Assembly (NCBI GenBank): GCA_963849325.1
Contig: CAWKHF010000013.1
Location: forward strand, 1-64,000
Direction: 5' to 3'
DNA from: an uncultured Planctomycetota bacterium
GTDB lineage: Bacteria; Planctomycetota; Planctomycetia; Gemmatales; Gemmataceae
DNA length: 64,000 nt
The notes under the pieces are model-generated. The model was not told the origin of the DNA and made no database searches. It saw only the letters and a list, made by a program, of their open reading frames with translations. Each line of letters starts with the position of its first letter. The first letter of the stretch is position 1. The position numbers and the translations under genes are program-made. Positions 8,925-26,477 of the stretch are shown in pieces.

Positions 8925-9309
8925 GGGTAGCCTCGGGAGCTAGGGAACGGCGGGTCTGGGCCGGTGCCGGATGCCGGCCGGTGCGCGGCGAGGTACAGGA
9001 ACTAGTTTCCCCGAGTTTCGCGCCCGGGTCAACGCCTTTGAGTGGATTTCGCTACTCGACACGCCGCTGCCGGCCCTGGCCTTGCAGCTCGCGATTCATG
9101 TAACGCTCTCGCGTTATTCGAAAGGACGGCATCCCCGGCTAAGGTAGCCTACCGAATGGCTCACGTCGCCCCTCGCTCGCCTTAAGTTTGCAAATAATCT
9201 TTGAAGCTTCGGCGGGACGATGCTAGGATGGGAGTGACTCGAAGCCTGCCCCTGCCGAACCTCCCGCGATGAGTTGCTCCCCACCGCGAGTACACCTGAG
9301 GGCGGAACG

Positions 9310-10779
9310 ATGAATCTTCGATCCCCCGGGTCCATCTTGATCGTCTCCTGCTACGAGTTGGGGCATCAACCGCTCGGGGTGGCCCTGCCCCTGGCGTTTC
9401 TGGAACGAGCCGGTTTCGCGCCGGATGCGTTGGACATCTCGGTGCAGGACTTCGACGAGGCCAAGGTCGCGCAGGCACGCCTGGTCGCTATCTCGGTCCC
9501 CATGCACACGGCCCTGCGCCTGGGCGTCCGCGTCGCCGAGCGCGTCCGGCAGCTTAATCCGGCCGCGGCGGTTTGTTTCTATGGACTGTACGCGGCCCTG
9601 AACGCCGACTATCTCCTCGAACACGGCGGCGACTACTGCATCGGCGGCGAATGCGAGACGCCGTTGGTCGCCCTCGCCGAAGCACTGGATGCCGGACGAA
9701 TCGGCGCCGTCGAGGGAGTCTATCAGCGCGGCCAAGCGGCTCAACCGTTTCTGCAGCGGCTGCCGTTCCCGCTGCCGGTCCGCTCGCCGCTGCCGCCGCT
9801 CGAAAAGTATGCTCGCCTCGAACACAAGGGCGAAAGCCGAGTGGTCGGCTACGTCGAGGCGAGCCGCGGCTGCCGTCACCTGTGTACGCATTGCCCGATC
9901 CCGCCCGTCTACGGCGGACGGTTCTTCATCATTCCGCGGGACGTCGTCCTGGAAGACATTCGCCGCCACGTCCGCGCGGGGGCCACGCACATCACGTTTG
10001 GCGATCCCGACTTCCTCAACGGTCCGGGACACTCCCTGAAGATCGTCCGCGCCCTGCACGCGGAGTTCCCCGAGCTGACTTTTGATTTCACTGCCAAGAT
10101 CGAGCACGTCTTGAAGCATCCCGAGGTGTTCCCCGAGTTGGGCGCCTCGGGCTGCCTGTTCATGGTCTCCGCGGTGGAGTCGCTCAGCGAGCGCGTGCTC
10201 ACGGTGCTGGAGAAGAACCACACGAGGGCGGACATCGAGAAGGCGCTGAAGATTGTCCATGCGGCCGGCATCGCGCTGCGGCCCACCTGGGTCGCCTTCA
10301 CGCCCTGGACCACCCTCGAGGACTATCGGGAAGTGCTGGAGTTCATCGAGGCGAATGGGCTGATCGACCACGTGGACCCCGTGCAGTACACTATCCGCTT
10401 GCTGGTCCCACCGGGTTCCTATCTGGCGGAGCGCCCCGCCATGCGGCCGTACCTGGGCCCGCTGGACGAAGCGGCGTTCAGCTACCACTGGGACCACCCC
10501 GACCCGCGCATGGACCGGCTGCAAAAAGCGGTCAGCAAGCTAGTCGAGGCGGACGCGACGTCGGGCGCGGACCCGGCCGATACCTTCTACCGCGTGCGCG
10601 ATCTGGCGGCCGGACGGAAGCCGAACGGTGTTGTGCATCCGCTGCCTCGGGATCGCATGAGAGCACCGCGGTTGAGTGAACCGTGGTTCTGCTGAGCGGA
10701 GCCGACCGAGGGTCAGTTGGACCCACTGCACAGCTCCAAAGCGATACTGCCCGTTGTCCCGATGCTGCCCACCGTTTAG
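9310..10779 (+). CDS. B12-binding-domain radical SAM (seleno)protein with CUAEP tail; in-frame TGA at 10693-10695 read as Sec
   Basis: CxxxCxxC motif 'CRHLCTHC'. After 'EPWFC' the TGA is followed in frame by AEPTEGQLDPLHSSKAILPVVPMLPTV to TAG 10777-10779, giving the C-U-A-E-P tail of the CUAEP/CCAEP family. Confidence 0.85.
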
Positions 10780-10794
10780 AAAGACTAACGCTCG

Positions 10795-11493
10795 ATGAAC
10801 ACGGCCCAGCAACTGCAAGACCTTCTTCAACTCCAGACGGCCCCGGTCGCGCTGGCCTTTCAGGACGCGCCACCGGCCCATCTTCCCCGCATGGCCGCGG
10901 CCGCGCCCTCCGGCTGCACGTTTTGGAAGCGTGCCGCCGCGGGGCAAGCCTTCTACACCGAAGTATCCGACCACTACAACTGCCCCATCGGGGCCTACAC
11001 CCACGGCGTCGATTTGCCGCCGGCGCAGGCGAAGGAGTTGCAAGACGTCGTGGAAACGATGATCCAGCTGGGCTATCTCCGGCCGGAAGAAGTTCCCGGC
11101 ATTCCACGCCGGCAGAGCAAGCTCGGCGTCGCTCTCTACGCGCCGCTGGCGACGGCGCCGTTCGAGCCGGAGGTCGTCCTCGTGTGCGGCAACGCCAAGC
11201 AGATCATGCTGCTGACGGAGGCGGCGCAAGCCGCCGGCGTCGGCGCCGAGGCGCCGCTGATGGGACGTCCCACCTGTGCGGCGGTCCCGACGGTCCTGCA
11301 AACCCAGCGCAGCGCGGCCAGTCTCGGCTGCATCGGCAACCGCGTTTACACCGAGATGGCCGATGACGAACTGTACTTCGCCCTGCCCGGCGGCCAACTC
11401 GGCCGAGTGGTGGAGAAGTTGGCAACGATCGTCAACGCGAACCGCGAGCTGGAGAAGTACCATCGTGCGAAACGAGCAACCCTAGGCGTTTGA
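10795..11493 (+). CDS. DUF169-family Cys-rich protein
   Basis: 'PVAL', 'GCTFW', 'CPIG', 'PTCAAVP', 'SLGCIGNR', 'DDEL' pattern. Confidence 0.75.
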   Translation: MNTAQQLQDLLQLQTAPVALAFQDAPPAHLPRMAAAAPSGCTFWKRAAAGQAFYTEVSDHYNCPIGAYTHGVDLPPAQAKELQDVVETMIQLGYLRPEEVPGIPRRQSKLGVALYAPLATAPFEPEVVLVCGNAKQIMLLTEAAQAAGVGAEAPLMGRPTCAAVPTVLQTQRSAASLGCIGNRVYTEMADDELYFALPGGQLGRVVEKLATIVNANRELEKYHRAKRATLGV

Positions 11494-11521
11494 CCCGATC
11501 CCCGGGAGAGGAGCCATTCTC

Positions 11522-12133
11522 ATGCAACACAGAATGTGGGCGGCCGCTCTGGGCCTGGTGTTTGGCGTCGCGCTGCCCGCCAGCGCCGAGATCATCAAGG
11601 GCCGCCTGGCCATCCGCGGCGCCGAAATGAGCTGATGAGGCGGGATGGCGTGTGACGCCATCGCACGTCAGTATGACGTGGACGCGGATTCGACGAAGCT
11701 CAATCGGCCCCAAGAACAAAAGGGCGGCTATCAGTTCGGCACCATCGAGTTTGTCGCCAAGAAGGGCAAGTCGATTGACCTGGACAAGATCCACGAGTCG
11801 ATCGCCGCCACGCGCCTGTCGGGCGGCACCAACATGCGCATGGATTACCTGGAAATCACGGCCAAAGGCGAGGTGATCGAGCGGGACAAGCAGCTGGTCT
11901 TGAAGGTGTCCGGCACGGGACAGGAATTCGTGCTGATCGAGGAACCCACGGCGAAGGACGCCCTGAAGCGTCTGCGCGAGGCCGTGGCGCGGGGGGACAA
12001 GGTGTCCACGGTCACGGGCCGCGTTCCCGGCTGGAACGGTCGTTTTCCCGATGTCCTGGCGGCGTGGGCGAAGACCCCCGACAGTCAGAAACGGAAGCTC
12101 GCGGTGGTGGATTTCAAGGTCGAGACGAAGTAA
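11522..12133 (+). CDS. Secreted HMA-like protein with tandem in-frame TGA-TGA (11633-11638); putative UU selenoprotein, 203 aa
   Basis: RBS GGAGAGGAG. The reading MQHRMWAAALGLVFGVALPASA-EIIKGRLAIRGAEMS-U-U-GGMACDAIA is continuous with ORF 11645-12133, and the signal peptide is present only upstream of the TGAs. Confidence 0.7.
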
Positions 12134-12157
12134 AGAACTGTCCCGCAATGACTTCCC

Positions 12158-12224
12158 CGTTTAGCCGCGACGCGCAGCGGAGCGCGGGCAGTGCCCGCGC
12201 TCCGCTGCGCGTCGCGGCTAAACG
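12158..12224. repeat. Perfect palindrome, family A copy 1 (33-bp arms)
   Basis: CGTTTAGCCGCGACGCGCAGCGGAGCGCGGGCA-G-TGCCCGCGCTCCGCTGCGCGTCGCGGCTAAACG. Confidence 0.9.
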
Positions 12225-12261
12225 AAGTTATTGCTGGACGCGTCCAATTAGAAAGACAACG

Positions 12262-12549
12262 ATGAGAGACCAGCTACGCAGCTTGTCCGGCGCTCTGCTC
12301 GCCGTGGCGGGCGCGGCGCCGACCTGAACGACGGCGGGGTTCCTGGCCCTGCTCGGGTTAGCGGGGAGCGCCACGGCCCGACTGGTGACCCACTGGCTTG
12401 CGCCGGTCCTGATCGGCCTGTCGGTGTTGTTCCTGCTGCGCTCGTTTTACATCCTGTACGTGCGGCGGCGCGGCACGCGGGTCAGCGCCGTCATTACCTG
12501 GATTTCGGCGGTCTTCGTTCTCGGCTTCTGGACCTGGCAGCTGATGTAG
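12262..12549 (+). CDS. MerT/MerF-like 3-TM membrane protein with in-frame TGA (12325-12327); putative selenoprotein, 95 aa
   Basis: MRDQLRSLSGALLAVAGAAPT-U-TTAGFLALLGLAGSATARLVTHWLAPVLIGLSVLFLLRSFYILYVRRRGTRVSAVITWISAVFVLGFWTWQLM. U lies at the end of TM1, where MerT/MerF have the Cys pair. Absent as a full-length ORF from the track. Confidence 0.75.
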
Positions 12550-12559
12550 AGGAGTTCCC

Positions 12560-13423
12560 GTGAACGCGCTTCGCATTGTGGGCTGCCTGTTGGCATCGTG
12601 CCTAATCGCCCAGGGATCCGCGCGCGGCCAGGACGCCGCCAAGGAGATCACCAACTCCATCGGGATGAAGCTGGTCCTGATTCCCGCGGGCAAGTTCGTC
12701 ATGGGTTCGCCGGCCGGCGAAGCCGAGCGCGACGCCGGTGAAGATCCGCACGAGGTCGTCCTCACGCGGCCGTTCTACCTCGGCGTCTACCCGGTCACGC
12801 AGGGCCAGTTCCAGAAAGTGATGGGCAAGAACCCGTCGTTCTTCCATCCGAAGAACGGCGGCAGTCTGGACCACCCGGCCGATCAGGTGCGGTGGGGCGA
12901 CGCCCGCGAGTTTTGCACGAAGCTCTCGGCGCTTGCCGAGGAGAAGAAGGCGGGCCGGACCTACCGCCTGCCGTCCGAGGCCGAATGGGAGTACGCCTGC
13001 CGCGCCGGCACCACCACGCCCTTCAACGTCGGCGACGCGCTCTCCTCCAAGCAGGCGAACTTCAACGGCAACTTCCCCTACGGCCGCGCTCCGAAAGGGT
13101 CTTTCTTGCGCCGGACGGTGAAGGTCGGCTCGTACCCGCCGAACGCCTGGGGCCTGTACGACATGCACGGCAACGTCTTGCAGTGGTGCAATGACTGGTA
13201 CGACCCGGATTACTACCAGAAGAGTCCCAGGGAAAATCCGAAGGGGCCGGACAAGGGCGTGGTTGCGACCGGCTTCCGGAGCGATTTCTTCGTGGTGGTC
13301 CGCGGCGGTTGCTGGCTGGACGAAGGTCGGGCCTGCCGTTCGGCCCGCCGTTTTCGGCTGCAGCAGAGTGAGCCTTATCGCTGGACCGGCTTTCGCGTGG
13401 CGTGCGACGTGGCCGGCAAGTGA
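12560..13423 (+). CDS. FGE-sulfatase (SUMF1) domain secreted protein
   Basis: 'NSIGMKLVLIPAGKFVMGS', 'RLPSEAEWEYACRAG', 'NAWGLYDMHGNV', 'GFRV'. RBS overlaps the upstream stop. Confidence 0.9.
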   Translation: MNALRIVGCLLASCLIAQGSARGQDAAKEITNSIGMKLVLIPAGKFVMGSPAGEAERDAGEDPHEVVLTRPFYLGVYPVTQGQFQKVMGKNPSFFHPKNGGSLDHPADQVRWGDAREFCTKLSALAEEKKAGRTYRLPSEAEWEYACRAGTTTPFNVGDALSSKQANFNGNFPYGRAPKGSFLRRTVKVGSYPPNAWGLYDMHGNVLQWCNDWYDPDYYQKSPRENPKGPDKGVVATGFRSDFFVVVRGGCWLDEGRACRSARRFRLQQSEPYRWTGFRVACDVAGK

Positions 13424-13444
13424 CAATCCGGCACATACCAGGAG

Positions 13445-13551
13445 AACCACGGATAACACGGATAAGAAAAGCAGAGAAAGCCGTATCCAGCCGGCACACC
13501 CTTGTTTCATCGGTATCATTAATATCCGCGTTATCCGTGTTATCCGTGGTT
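13445..13551. repeat. Inverted 9-mer tandem element, family B copy 1
   Basis: AACCACGGATAACACGGATAA ... TTATCCGTGTTATCCGTGGTT. Confidence 0.85.
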
Positions 13552-13573
13552 GAAGACCTTTGAGGGCGGTCCC

Positions 13574-13888
13574 ATGAAAAACGAGCTTCGCAGTGTGTCG
13601 GCCGCGATCATGAGCGTGCTTGCCGCGCTGCCGTGGTGAGCCATCACCTGAATGGTCCTTAATGGGACTTCAGCCCTGCTCGGGTTAGCGGGGAGCGTCA
13701 CAGCAACCGCCGTCAGCGGCTGGATTGCCCCAGTCCTGGTATGCGCTTCGATCGTCCTGATTGGACGGTCGTTCTACGTCATTTACGTGCGCGGCATTCG
13801 CACGCGAGCGACCGTCGTAATTGCATGGTCCGCTCTGGTGTTCATCATCGGCTTCTGGACGTGGCAGCTGACGATGGGCAGAGGGTGA
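13574..13888 (+). CDS. Second MerT/MerF-like membrane protein with two in-frame TGAs (13637, 13649; UxxxU)
   Basis: MKNELRSVSAAIMSVLAALPW-U-AIT-U-MVLNGTSALLGLAGS... is in frame with ORF 13652-13888. It is a clear paralog of 12262-12549 on both sides of the TGAs. Confidence 0.75.
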
Positions 13889-13918
13889 CCGCTTCCGCGT
13901 GGGTTTACGAGGTATTCT

Positions 13919-14302
13919 ATGTTCGGGCGAACGGGCGTGGCGTGGGTGCTGGCGGCCTCGGCGTTCTGGCTGTCCGCTTGCGGTCGGGTACACAAGCCGG
14001 AGAAGAGCTTACCGGCGGAGACGAAGGCGGAGTCTCCCGCCGCTGTGCAGCGGATCACGTTGCACGTGCCGGGCATGATCGACCGCCAGGGCATCACCTG
14101 ACTTACCTGAAAGAACGTCGTTCAAGAAGCCCTGTTAGGGCTTCCAGGCATCGAGAAGGTCGACGTCGATCTGAAAAAAGACCTGCTCCACGTTCGTTAC
14201 GATCCGGCCAAGGTGACACCAGAGCAGATGCTCCAGGAGATTGACAAGCTCGGGTACGAAGGGAAGATCCTTGCGGACGGCGACACCGCGTCCAAGCCTT
14301 GA
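13919..14302 (+). CDS. MerP/CopZ-like HMA lipoprotein with UxxU (TGA 14099, 14108), 127 aa
   Basis: Lipobox 'LSAC'. ITLHVPGM...GIT-U-LT-U-KNVVQEALLGLPGIEKVDVDLKKDLLHVRYDPAKVTPEQMLQEIDKLGYEG is a full HMA pattern only if both TGAs are read through. Confidence 0.85.
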
Positions 14303-14337
14303 GCGGTTCTCCCGCGACCAAGAGGGAGGTTTCGCCG

Positions 14338-14649
14338 ATGCGTGTACTGTTTCGATCCATCCTGGGAATGTTTATGGCCGACCGAGGTCCATCGGACAGC
14401 CCGCCGTCCCCCGCGGATGTGGTCGCCCACGTTCCGGGCCTGACCTGACCGCGCGGCTGACCGGATCGGGTGCGGAAAGCACTCGGTACTCTACCGTGGG
14501 TAGAGCAAGGCACGATTCAGATGAACTTCAAGGCCCGCGAGCTGAGGTTTTGCCTGAAAGACAAGAGCCAATGCGACGACGAGGCGCTCAAGAAGGCGCT
14601 CAAGGCCGAGGGGTTTCCGGACGTCCAGGTCCAAACCGGGCCGTCGTGA
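14338..14649 (+). CDS. HMA-domain protein with UxxxU (TGA 14446, 14458), 103 aa
   Basis: RBS GGGAGG. ...VVAHVPGLT-U-PRG-U-PDRVRKALGTLPWVEQGTIQMNFKARELRFCLKDKSQCDDEALKKALKAEGF. Absent from the ORF track. Confidence 0.8.
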
Positions 14650-16107: not shown

Positions 16108-16172
16108 CGTTTAGCCGCGACGCGCAGCGGAGCGCGTCGGCCCCGCGCTCCGCTGCGCGTCGCGGCTAAACG
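16108..16172. repeat. Palindrome family A copy 2
   Basis: CGTTTAGCCGCGACGCGCAGCGGAGCGCG ... CGCGCTCCGCTGCGCGTCGCGGCTAAACG between convergent genes. Confidence 0.9.
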
Positions 16173-26412: not shown

Positions 26413-26477
26413 GTTTAGCCGCGACGCGCAGCGGAGCGCGGGACTCTCCCGCGCTCCGCTGCGCGTCGCGGCTAAAC
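26413..26477. repeat. Palindrome family A copy 3
   Basis: GTTTAGCCGCGACGCGCAGCGGAGCGCGGGA ... TCCCGCGCTCCGCTGCGCGTCGCGGCTAAAC. Confidence 0.9.

Follow-up and report, generated by a model that had tools for sequence, protein, structure and literature searches.

In bacteria, selenocysteine insertion sequence (SECIS) elements differ between gene families, and in the established MerP-MerT relay it is MerP that hands the ion to MerT. Selenoproteins of the MerT type are tabulated in a review (Zhang, 2022; PMC9312934), and represent, according to Haft (2022; bioRxiv 10.1101/2022.07.06.499078), one of only two transporter selenoprotein families that he could validate. MerT-family selenoproteins and bacterial SECIS elements are already known; the planctomycete family that we describe here is new and unannotated. 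It is represented by two paralogous genes, termed A and B, in a stretch of 64,000 nt (hereafter, the window) from an uncultured Gemmataceae bacterium (Planctomycetota), which corresponds to positions 1-64,000 of the forward strand of contig CAWKHF010000013.1 in assembly GCA_963849325.1. Both genes have in-frame UGA codons and, shortly downstream of them, the same 20-nt hairpin, for which comparative evidence makes a role as their SECIS element very probable.

Gene A (12262-12549, + strand) would encode, when TGA is translated as selenocysteine (Sec or U), a MerT-like membrane selenoprotein of 95 aa whose only Sec lies in the motif AAPT-U-TTAG, the in-frame UGA being codon 22 (Sec22; 12325-12327, +). 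Gene B (13574-13888, +), translated in the same way, would give a 104-aa MerT-like membrane selenoprotein with the motif LPW-U-AIT-U, whose two in-frame UGAs (Sec22, 13637-13639, +; and Sec26, 13649-13651, +) lie 34 and 22 nt before the hairpin, respectively. The paralogues have diverged, sharing 64% of their aligned bases (183/285) and 52% of their residues (49/95), yet a 25-mer, GCCCTGCTCGGGTTAGCGGGGAGCG, is exact in both, at 12346-12370 in gene A and at 13673-13697 in gene B, just where the original prediction had placed it. Only these two copies exist in the 8.16-Mb host genome, even with up to three mismatches allowed. The 25-mer starts 18 nt (A) or 21 nt (B) past the last TGA, a distance that had been anticipated and can be read directly in the window, with the hairpin itself beginning at 19 and 22 nt, one base further on. 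In gene A the putative SECIS hairpin spans 12347-12366 (+), where CCCUGCU and AGCGGGG would form a stem of 7 bp closed by the 6-nt loop CGGGUU; the same 20 bases make up the hairpin of gene B (13674-13693, +). Among the 49 residues identical between A and B, 33 are written with the same codon, as are eight out of eight in the peptide ALLGLAGS that covers the block.

The family was retrieved by a six-frame search reading through stops, which recovered it from 8 of 101 related genomes, and then by a 10-sequence profile, which recovered it from 15 of the 267 genomes of the order. Of 401 genomes sampled across the phylum, 6 gave a match, the five besides the window's own genome being weak matches without TGA. 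Every complete family gene obtained from genomes carries an in-frame TGA (27 genes from 16 genomes, namely, the 15 of the order plus G091, from another family), and a scan of metagenome contigs contributed 72 further loci with 99 family matches. When metagenomes and genomes were pooled, 97 unique homologue windows were available for counts of class and spacing. Two types recur among them: type A, AP(T/N)-U, with one Sec, and type B, LPW-UU. By class, there are 63 A-type windows with a single U, and B-type windows with UU (28), UxxxU (4), CU (1) and CC (1), such that 96 of the 97 have at least one TGA; the TGA for Sec22 of gene A is kept in all 63 A-type windows. Source names and record titles of the matches point to Gemmataceae, Gemmatales and 'Planctomyces sp.' bins, and added scans of genome contigs yielded only Sec forms, from Planctomycetota genome bins. 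The habitat is soil according to sequencing-run records and, for one locus (L126), marine sediment according to the contig name.

An exact identity between copies that lie 1.3 kb apart on the same strand could be the trace of a recent gene conversion or recombination event between A and B, devoid of any RNA function. This explanation fails because the block is conserved across genomes: many genomes and metagenomes, with 95 Sec-form sequences in all (94 of them distinct), retain its 20 bases, it is also found in lineages with an A-type gene alone within about 3 kb, and the silent sites have diverged in both of its flanks. No B lies within about 3 kb of the marine-type A genes (PN-U). We consider gene conversion to be hardly credible, and turn to what the homologues say about the block as a SECIS element.

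First, conservation was measured in an alignment (A3) of 95 Sec-form windows of 48 nt, 94 of them distinct and most of them from Planctomycetota or Gemmataceae genome bins and metagenomes. The 20 bases of CCCTGCTCGGGTTAGCGGGG are conserved at 0.90-1.00, save four at 0.64-0.89. Third codon positions within the hairpin are conserved at 0.82-0.99, with one at 0.64 where G and A alternate, as compared with 0.38-0.62 for the eight nearest third positions outside the hairpin and 0.38-0.48 for those between the UGA and the hairpin. Second, in 94 unique near-full-length genes the synonymous codon identity averages 0.81 over the seven hairpin codons versus 0.45 over the 60 other informative columns (Mann-Whitney p=5.6e-5), and the best sliding window of seven columns is exactly the hairpin block. 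Third, in the 27 genome genes the seven hairpin codons have synonymous identities of 1.00, 1.00, 0.92, 0.93, 1.00, 0.52 and 0.78, and the codons flanking them 0.19 and 0.41. The conservation at the RNA level, silent positions included, that had been postulated from the two paralogues is thus borne out in the family, and rather than being spread evenly along the gene pair it is confined to the block.

The motif ALLGLAG is itself nearly invariant, and it resembles the LG-x-x-G that follows the Cys pair of MerT (in an alignment that is not significant), as would be expected if the block were kept by the peptide together with translation-driven codon choice, and no RNA element existed. However, peptide constraint alone is insufficient, because third positions are also conserved. 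Equally conserved P, S, Y, V and R columns are free at their third positions, with identities of 0.27-0.66; the frozen codons are rare ones, TTA accounting for 1.3% of Leu codons and GGG for 13.9% of Gly codons in a crude count over the genome's open frames of at least 500 codons, which agrees with the rarity of TTA that had been remarked upon before; and the xCC codon ahead of the motif retains its C whether Ala, Ser, Pro or Thr is encoded. Moreover, L126, an all-Cys B-type homologue ('PWCC'), writes ILGLAG in different codons. A purely peptide-based origin of the block seems to us very improbable.

The spacing between UGA and hairpin is exact to the base in 96 of 96 TGA-bearing windows, at 19 nt in A-type genes (63/63), 22 and 19 nt in UU forms (28/28), 34 and 22 nt in UxxxU forms (4/4), and 19 nt in the CU form, and the hairpin is kept in all TGA-containing homologues. 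The latter form, L117, a metagenome B type with C-U (TGT TGA), retains the hairpin. L126, where both positions are Cys, reads TCA ATC CTT GGC CTG GCT GGT at the hairpin site, that is, neither the block sequence nor a hairpin, and all of the cluster neighbours described below are missing within 3 kb on either side of it.

Regarding the fold, 97.4% of cells in the helix CCCUGCU/AGCGGGG pair across the alignment, compared with 40-66% when the partners are slid by one to three columns, and RNAalifold independently returns the inner six pairs of the same helix, which sustains the stem and loop that had been drawn from the window alone. The second and third bases of the loop CGGGUU are G in 95 of 95 sequences. 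Variation in the stem is one-sided and, in six pairs, mostly pair-keeping, with U-G (59) alternating with U-A (32), U-A (76) with U-G (16), and C-G with few U-G. The frequent G-to-A change (32/94) converts a U-G pair into U-A, and, by our reading of the fold, would break the alternative register that gene A adopts when folded as a single sequence.

Several observations weigh against this hairpin being a SECIS element, and they are gathered here. No compensatory double changes occur among the 7 pairs in the 95 sequences, and shuffles reach the observed pair scores in 483-500 of 500 cases; because of this, the structure rests on conservation and pair-preserving single changes. Hence, of the two homologue signals that the original prediction looked to, suppressed synonymous variation is present, but covariation is not. 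Nor did the folding of single sequences, which it also envisaged, lend support: shuffles fold just as well (z -0.2 to -1.1), and gene A at its energy minimum takes another register, at odds with that of gene B. Since the folds match shuffles and differ between the paralogues, thermodynamics alone is uninformative. No Rfam family matches the hairpin. The control from Cys forms is a single sequence, L126 (n=1), and the metagenome scan did not yield DNA for two further Cys forms, P0008 and P0076. Finally, the minimal element of E. coli fdhF has a spacing of 11 nt, shorter than the 19-22 nt seen here, and the first UGA of gene B is as far as 34 nt from the hairpin.

When the whole genome was searched with a covariance model of the hairpin, genes A and B alone emerged, the next three matches having E values of at least 0.4 and lacking an in-frame UGA. 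The hairpin is thus family-specific and does not reflect a genome-wide SECIS consensus. A weak Rfam match to SECIS_3 at 13156-13195 (E 0.54) was set aside, as it falls inside the gene for an FGE-sulfatase-domain protein (see below). On the minus strand, the open frames over the hairpin (12228-12374 and 13540-13701) begin alike, with M-x-LPANPSRA; these antisense frames were discarded as genes, their common start being only the reverse translation of the conserved block.

Some of these observations would also suit a genuine element, in RNA or DNA, that serves some other purpose, for example as a membrane-insertion pause site, an RNase or small-RNA target or a protein-binding site, with the UGA being recoded through another signal. 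Covariation is absent and SelB binding is only inferred, the spacing exceeds that of the E. coli model, and the lack of further genome copies implies that the other selenoprotein genes use different sequences. Against such a role, in every TGA window the hairpin lies at a set number of bases from the UGA, it is gone from the all-Cys L126, the third positions between UGA and hairpin reveal no alternative conserved element, and bacterial SECIS elements are known to vary from one gene family to another. We regard this alternative as quite improbable, albeit less so than those based on gene conversion or on the peptide.

The genome has what the SECIS reading demands. Genes for SelB (313.7 bits; C12:1295614-1297495) and SelA (286.7 bits) lie next to each other on contig C12 and score above their respective cut-offs, and ARAGORN locates a tRNA-Sec(TCA) at C6:239940-240031. 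As selA is above cut-off in 243 of the 267 genomes of the order, including all 15 with these genes, its distribution is compatible with Sec but does not discriminate. Because TGA also terminates ordinary genes, for instance the FGE gene and gene B itself, the genetic code is not reassigned.

It could still be argued that the UGAs are true stops, the products being the annotated downstream proteins of 54-78 aa, perhaps plus a 21-aa leader peptide. Most database entries are in fact called in this manner: the protein database holds at least 508 family matches, and among the best 120 of these 508 the listed lengths are mostly 64-80 aa, cut at the UGA, and those of them with a source name are labelled 'hypothetical protein'. 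However, protein-level conservation extends in the same frame over the 21 codons that precede the UGA, which do vary at silent sites; no start codon directly follows the UGA in many A-type genes, and the called frame of gene A starts only at GTG 12385, within the second helix; some homologues have Cys at the UGA position; and selA, selB and tRNA-Sec are all in the genome. Termination at these codons has, in our judgement, next to no plausibility.

Substitutions at the Sec position were followed in 11 database homologues. Two are full length with Cys (P0008 and P0076), which, together with L126 ('CC') and L117 ('CU'), make up the rare homologues with Cys at this site; the other nine have W or WW (2), R (2) or L (1), or are truncated or partial (4). 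Full-length P0006, P0007 and P0010 have Arg or Leu, presumably through a single-base change of TGA, and they may be inactive variants, strain polymorphisms or sequencing errors.

Taken together, the frozen silent sites, the rare codons, the fixed distance after a conserved UGA, the loss together with the change to Cys, and the Sec machinery support the view of the hairpin as a SECIS element, in keeping with the original prediction. Several of the features expected of such an element are found here: a UGA where homologues have Cys, a stem-loop at a short and defined distance, G in the apical loop, selA, selB and tRNA-Sec in the genome, and an RNA-level constraint that has vanished from the one all-Cys form. 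In the mechanism that we propose, SelB carrying Sec-tRNA(Sec) would bind the hairpin, which lies inside the coding sequence over the codons of A-L-L-G-L-A-G, and the UGA 19 nt upstream (in UU forms, the one 22 nt upstream as well) would be decoded as selenocysteine and not as a stop. The peptide would fix codon positions 1 and 2, and the RNA position 3; the overlap of both constraints would explain why 25 bases are common to two diverged paralogues.

The contrast between a single U in gene A and UxxxU in gene B, to which the original prediction had drawn attention, is real, in that both motifs are present; UxxxU, however, is a rare derivative of UU, since it occurs in 4 of 34 unique B-type windows (G000, G006, G022 and the metagenome locus L058) versus 28 with UU. 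Judging from these sequences, the UU pair is ancestral and UxxxU derived. The change is due to an insertion of 4-5 codons past the second UGA, which in the window encodes an extra hairpin, GGUCCU-UAAU-GGGACU (13654-13669, +). The 21-nt stretch that contains it (13652-13672) folds at -7.4 kcal/mol (z -2.86), and only 2 of 200 shuffles fold as well. All three distinct UxxxU sequences have a hairpin of their own at this place, with differing letters, the remaining two being GGUGUU-CAAU-GGCACC and GGC(G)GCC-AAU-GGC(A)GCU, and between the first two sequences one pair is changed on both sides by synonymous substitutions. With three sequences only, this is no more than suggestive. The inserted hairpin may act as a second SECIS for the first UGA or as a folded spacer, as its 16 nt, once folded, would shorten the effective distance of the first UGA from 34 to about 18 nt (34 - 16).

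The MerT/MerF-like character that had been assigned to A and B finds weak support, from sub-threshold NCBIfam matches. Both match NCBIfam model NF033560 (merT_RC607), gene A with an E value of 7.7e-7 (29.4 bits) and gene B with 4.6e-6 (26.9 bits), well below the cut-off of 130 bits, and so do all ten members of the profile, over near-full length (best E 2e-7, 27-29 bits) and again far under the cut-off. Three results speak against counting them as MerT. The homology is weak, at 29 bits versus a cut-off of 130; Pfam MerT (PF02411) matches none of the ten members at E values of up to 10, and what Pfam did return for them was noise; and hhalign to MerT of Tn21/R100 gives a probability of 0.27%, which is not significant. 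Because of this combination we call the proteins MerT-like and do not file them as MerT. The non-significant alignment lays APT-U-TTA...LLGLAGS on AST-C-CLG...ALGFSGA, with U22 on the first Cys of the CC pair.

An AlphaFold model of B places helices at 2-18, 22-30, 32-44, 51-71 and 78-102, that is, with the low confidence that the model has, it gives a broken first helix and two more long helices; its mean predicted local distance difference test score is only 59, for which reason we used it for helix positions only. The loop between the second and third transmembrane helices (YVRRRGTR in A, YVRGIRTR in B) has no Cys or Sec, so the second Cys pair of MerT is absent. A sequence search among solved structures found none for these proteins. 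We propose that A and B are small three-helix MerT-like inner-membrane selenoproteins, whose selenols would sit at the break in the first hydrophobic helix, where MerT has its Cys-Cys pair. They would take a soft metal or metalloid ion from the adjacent periplasmic Sec-pair proteins and pass it across the membrane. By analogy with the MerP-MerT relay, such a selenolate relay for a soft metal or metalloid appears to be their most likely function.

The genes around A and B (Pfam and NCBIfam scans took in the eight proteins of 9274-14649) form a cluster of six selenoprotein genes with ten Sec codons within 5.4 kb (9274-14649). The first one (9274-10779, +) encodes a B12-binding radical SAM selenoprotein with a C-U-AEP tail (TGA at 10693-10695), matching NF040546 with 683 bits over a cut-off of 500; its next best match is ArsL (NF040542, 348 bits). 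A DUF169 protein (10795-11493, +; PF02596, E 1.3e-29) follows. Directly upstream of gene A lies the gene for a secreted 203-aa protein (11522-12133, +) with the motif GAEMS-U-U-GG (TGA TGA at 11633-11638), of which the called frame (11645-12133) omits both the signal peptide and the Sec pair. The UU pair is kept in 55 of 56 unique N-termini of its homologues, and the protein has no NCBIfam match and no Pfam match above cut-off; to judge by its sequence, it is probably an unrecognised selenoprotein family. Between A and B is encoded a secreted protein with an FGE-sulfatase domain (12560-13423, +; PF03781, E 2e-49).

Downstream of B, HMA1 (13919-14302, +) would be a MerP/CopZ-like HMA lipoprotein with UxxU (TGA at 14099 and 14108; Pfam HMA, E 6e-14), which reaches 63 bits against NF041115 (UxxU_metal_bind), under the cut-off of 95, and HMA2 (14338-14649, +) has the motif GLT-U-PRG-U (TGA at 14446 and 14458) with weak matches to MerP (E 2.4e-5) and HMA (E 1.9e-3). 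Gene callers split HMA2 into the short frames 14299-14448 and 14470-14649, and past its second UGA there is a strong hairpin, UCGGGUGC-GGAAA-GCACUCGG (65-nt stretch, z -2.07). The six selenoproteins are, therefore, the radical SAM protein (C-U-AEP), the UU protein, A (U), B (UxxxU), HMA1 (UxxU) and HMA2 (UxxxU).

Searching all loci with the window's neighbours by tblastn revealed that the cluster is conserved, with some reshuffling, in most loci of sufficient length; B is usually followed by HMA genes, and the UU protein always precedes A. In G044 (L021/L026) a B-like copy is split between two frames, is without its N-terminal Sec region and remains adjacent to the HMA genes; it looks like a decaying copy. 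In G022 (L024) an A-type gene runs in frame and stop-free into the FGE gene, for a total of 376 aa, through a natural fusion or else through faulty assembly; were the fusion real, it would tie A functionally to the FGE-like protein. A palindromic repeat of approximately 63 nt has three copies in the window (12160-12222, 16110-16170 and 26414-26476), and its arms give six matches where 0 are expected. An RNA-library contig of a relative lacks the copy located between the UU-protein gene and A: there, 13 other letters replace a 117-nt stretch that includes this copy, which looks like an insertion similar to a repetitive extragenic palindrome (REP) or a miniature inverted-repeat transposable element (MITE).

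None of the sequencing runs contains more than 0.13 of the sampled words. Soil RNA-library contigs of relatives, 88-95% alike, cover gene A and part of gene B, across the UGAs: X14 spans 12262-12536, with gene A whole, X11 spans 13570-13793, the beginning of gene B, and one contig joins gene A to both of its neighbours, the UU-protein gene (its end) and the FGE gene. Such cover by RNA-library contigs is not proof of transcription.

It is tempting to speculate that the cluster as a whole is a dedicated all-selenolate relay, in which a soft metal or metalloid would be captured in the periplasm, pass through Sec-lined MerT-like channels and be delivered to the ArsL-like B12 radical SAM protein, which would make or break a carbon-metal(loid) bond. 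The same scenario has one SECIS routinely decoding two adjacent UGAs, and the inserted hairpin of UxxxU genes serving as second SECIS or folding spacer. Taken jointly, these proposals are tentative, and we would deem the complete scenario rather unlikely. The ten Sec codons of the cluster suggest that soil and marine Planctomycetota have an unexplored, selenium-dependent chemistry of metals or metalloids. Recognising the Sec codons restores the metal-binding helix to a family of at least 508 proteins, which among the best 120 are mostly cut at the UGA.

Full-text literature searches found no description of this planctomycete family or cluster, and the main text of a planctomycete paper (PMC4807772) makes no mention of mercury or MerT. 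With respect to bacterial SECIS elements (E. coli fdhF type; the bSECIS model of Zhang and Gladyshev), the hairpin is alike in being a stem-loop within the coding sequence, shortly past the UGA and with a G-containing loop, and a 7-bp stem with a GGU-containing loop fits the SECIS expected according to Haft (2022; bioRxiv 10.1101/2022.07.06.499078). It differs in that no Rfam model matches it, in that its 20 bases are almost invariant across a protein family, down to approximately 40% protein identity, and in that most B-type genes have two adjacent UGAs (22 and 19 nt) that a single hairpin would have to serve. That the hairpin occurs 19 nt from a single UGA, 22 and 19 nt from tandem UGAs, and, where another hairpin is inserted, 34 and 22 nt from the two UGAs would provide a natural experiment on the tolerance of spacing and on the repeated use of SelB.

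With respect to MerT (PF02411; NF033560), A and B are alike in their small size (95 and 104 aa, against about 100-116 aa) and in the adjacent gene for a MerP-like periplasmic HMA protein, as HMA1 and HMA2 follow B in most B loci. They may also be alike in having three hydrophobic helices, the first of them with a Pro-containing break where B types would place two vicinal chalcogens (UU) ahead of L-G-x-x-G. Unlike MerT, the A type has a single Sec, and the loop that joins helices 2 and 3 is devoid of the second Cys pair. Unlike MerT loci, there is no merR among the eight proteins scanned (9274-14649), and merA (PRK13748) is matched only far below threshold, through the HMA domain of 13919-14302. 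HMA1, compared with NF041115 and MerP/CopZ, has UxxU in place of CxxC and would play the role of MerP, even if it scores under the NF041115 cut-off. The known MerT-family selenoproteins (ABB16073.1, 'putative mercuric transport protein'; the CU-motif WP_250634603.1; and NF045683) have Sec at the metal site, as do A and B. They are members of Pfam MerT, have a CU motif or are MerT-CopZ fusions, a distinction drawn from their descriptions, whereas in the present family, which is unfused to an HMA domain, the motif is U or UU, and rarely UxxxU or CU. The fusion-like model NF045683 gives an E value of 0.1 for gene A (12 bits, cut-off 375) and no match for gene B.

Finally, the cluster can be set beside the SAO system and other multi-selenoprotein organometallic loci described by Haft (2022; bioRxiv 10.1101/2022.07.06.499078), where an uncharacterised CUAEP radical SAM family is also mentioned. 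The gene families, the phylum (Planctomycetota) and the habitat differ here, and no SAO family occurs among the scanned neighbours. Both, however, bring together several selenoproteins with paired Cys/Sec, transport parts, metal carriers, and a radical SAM or organometal enzyme.

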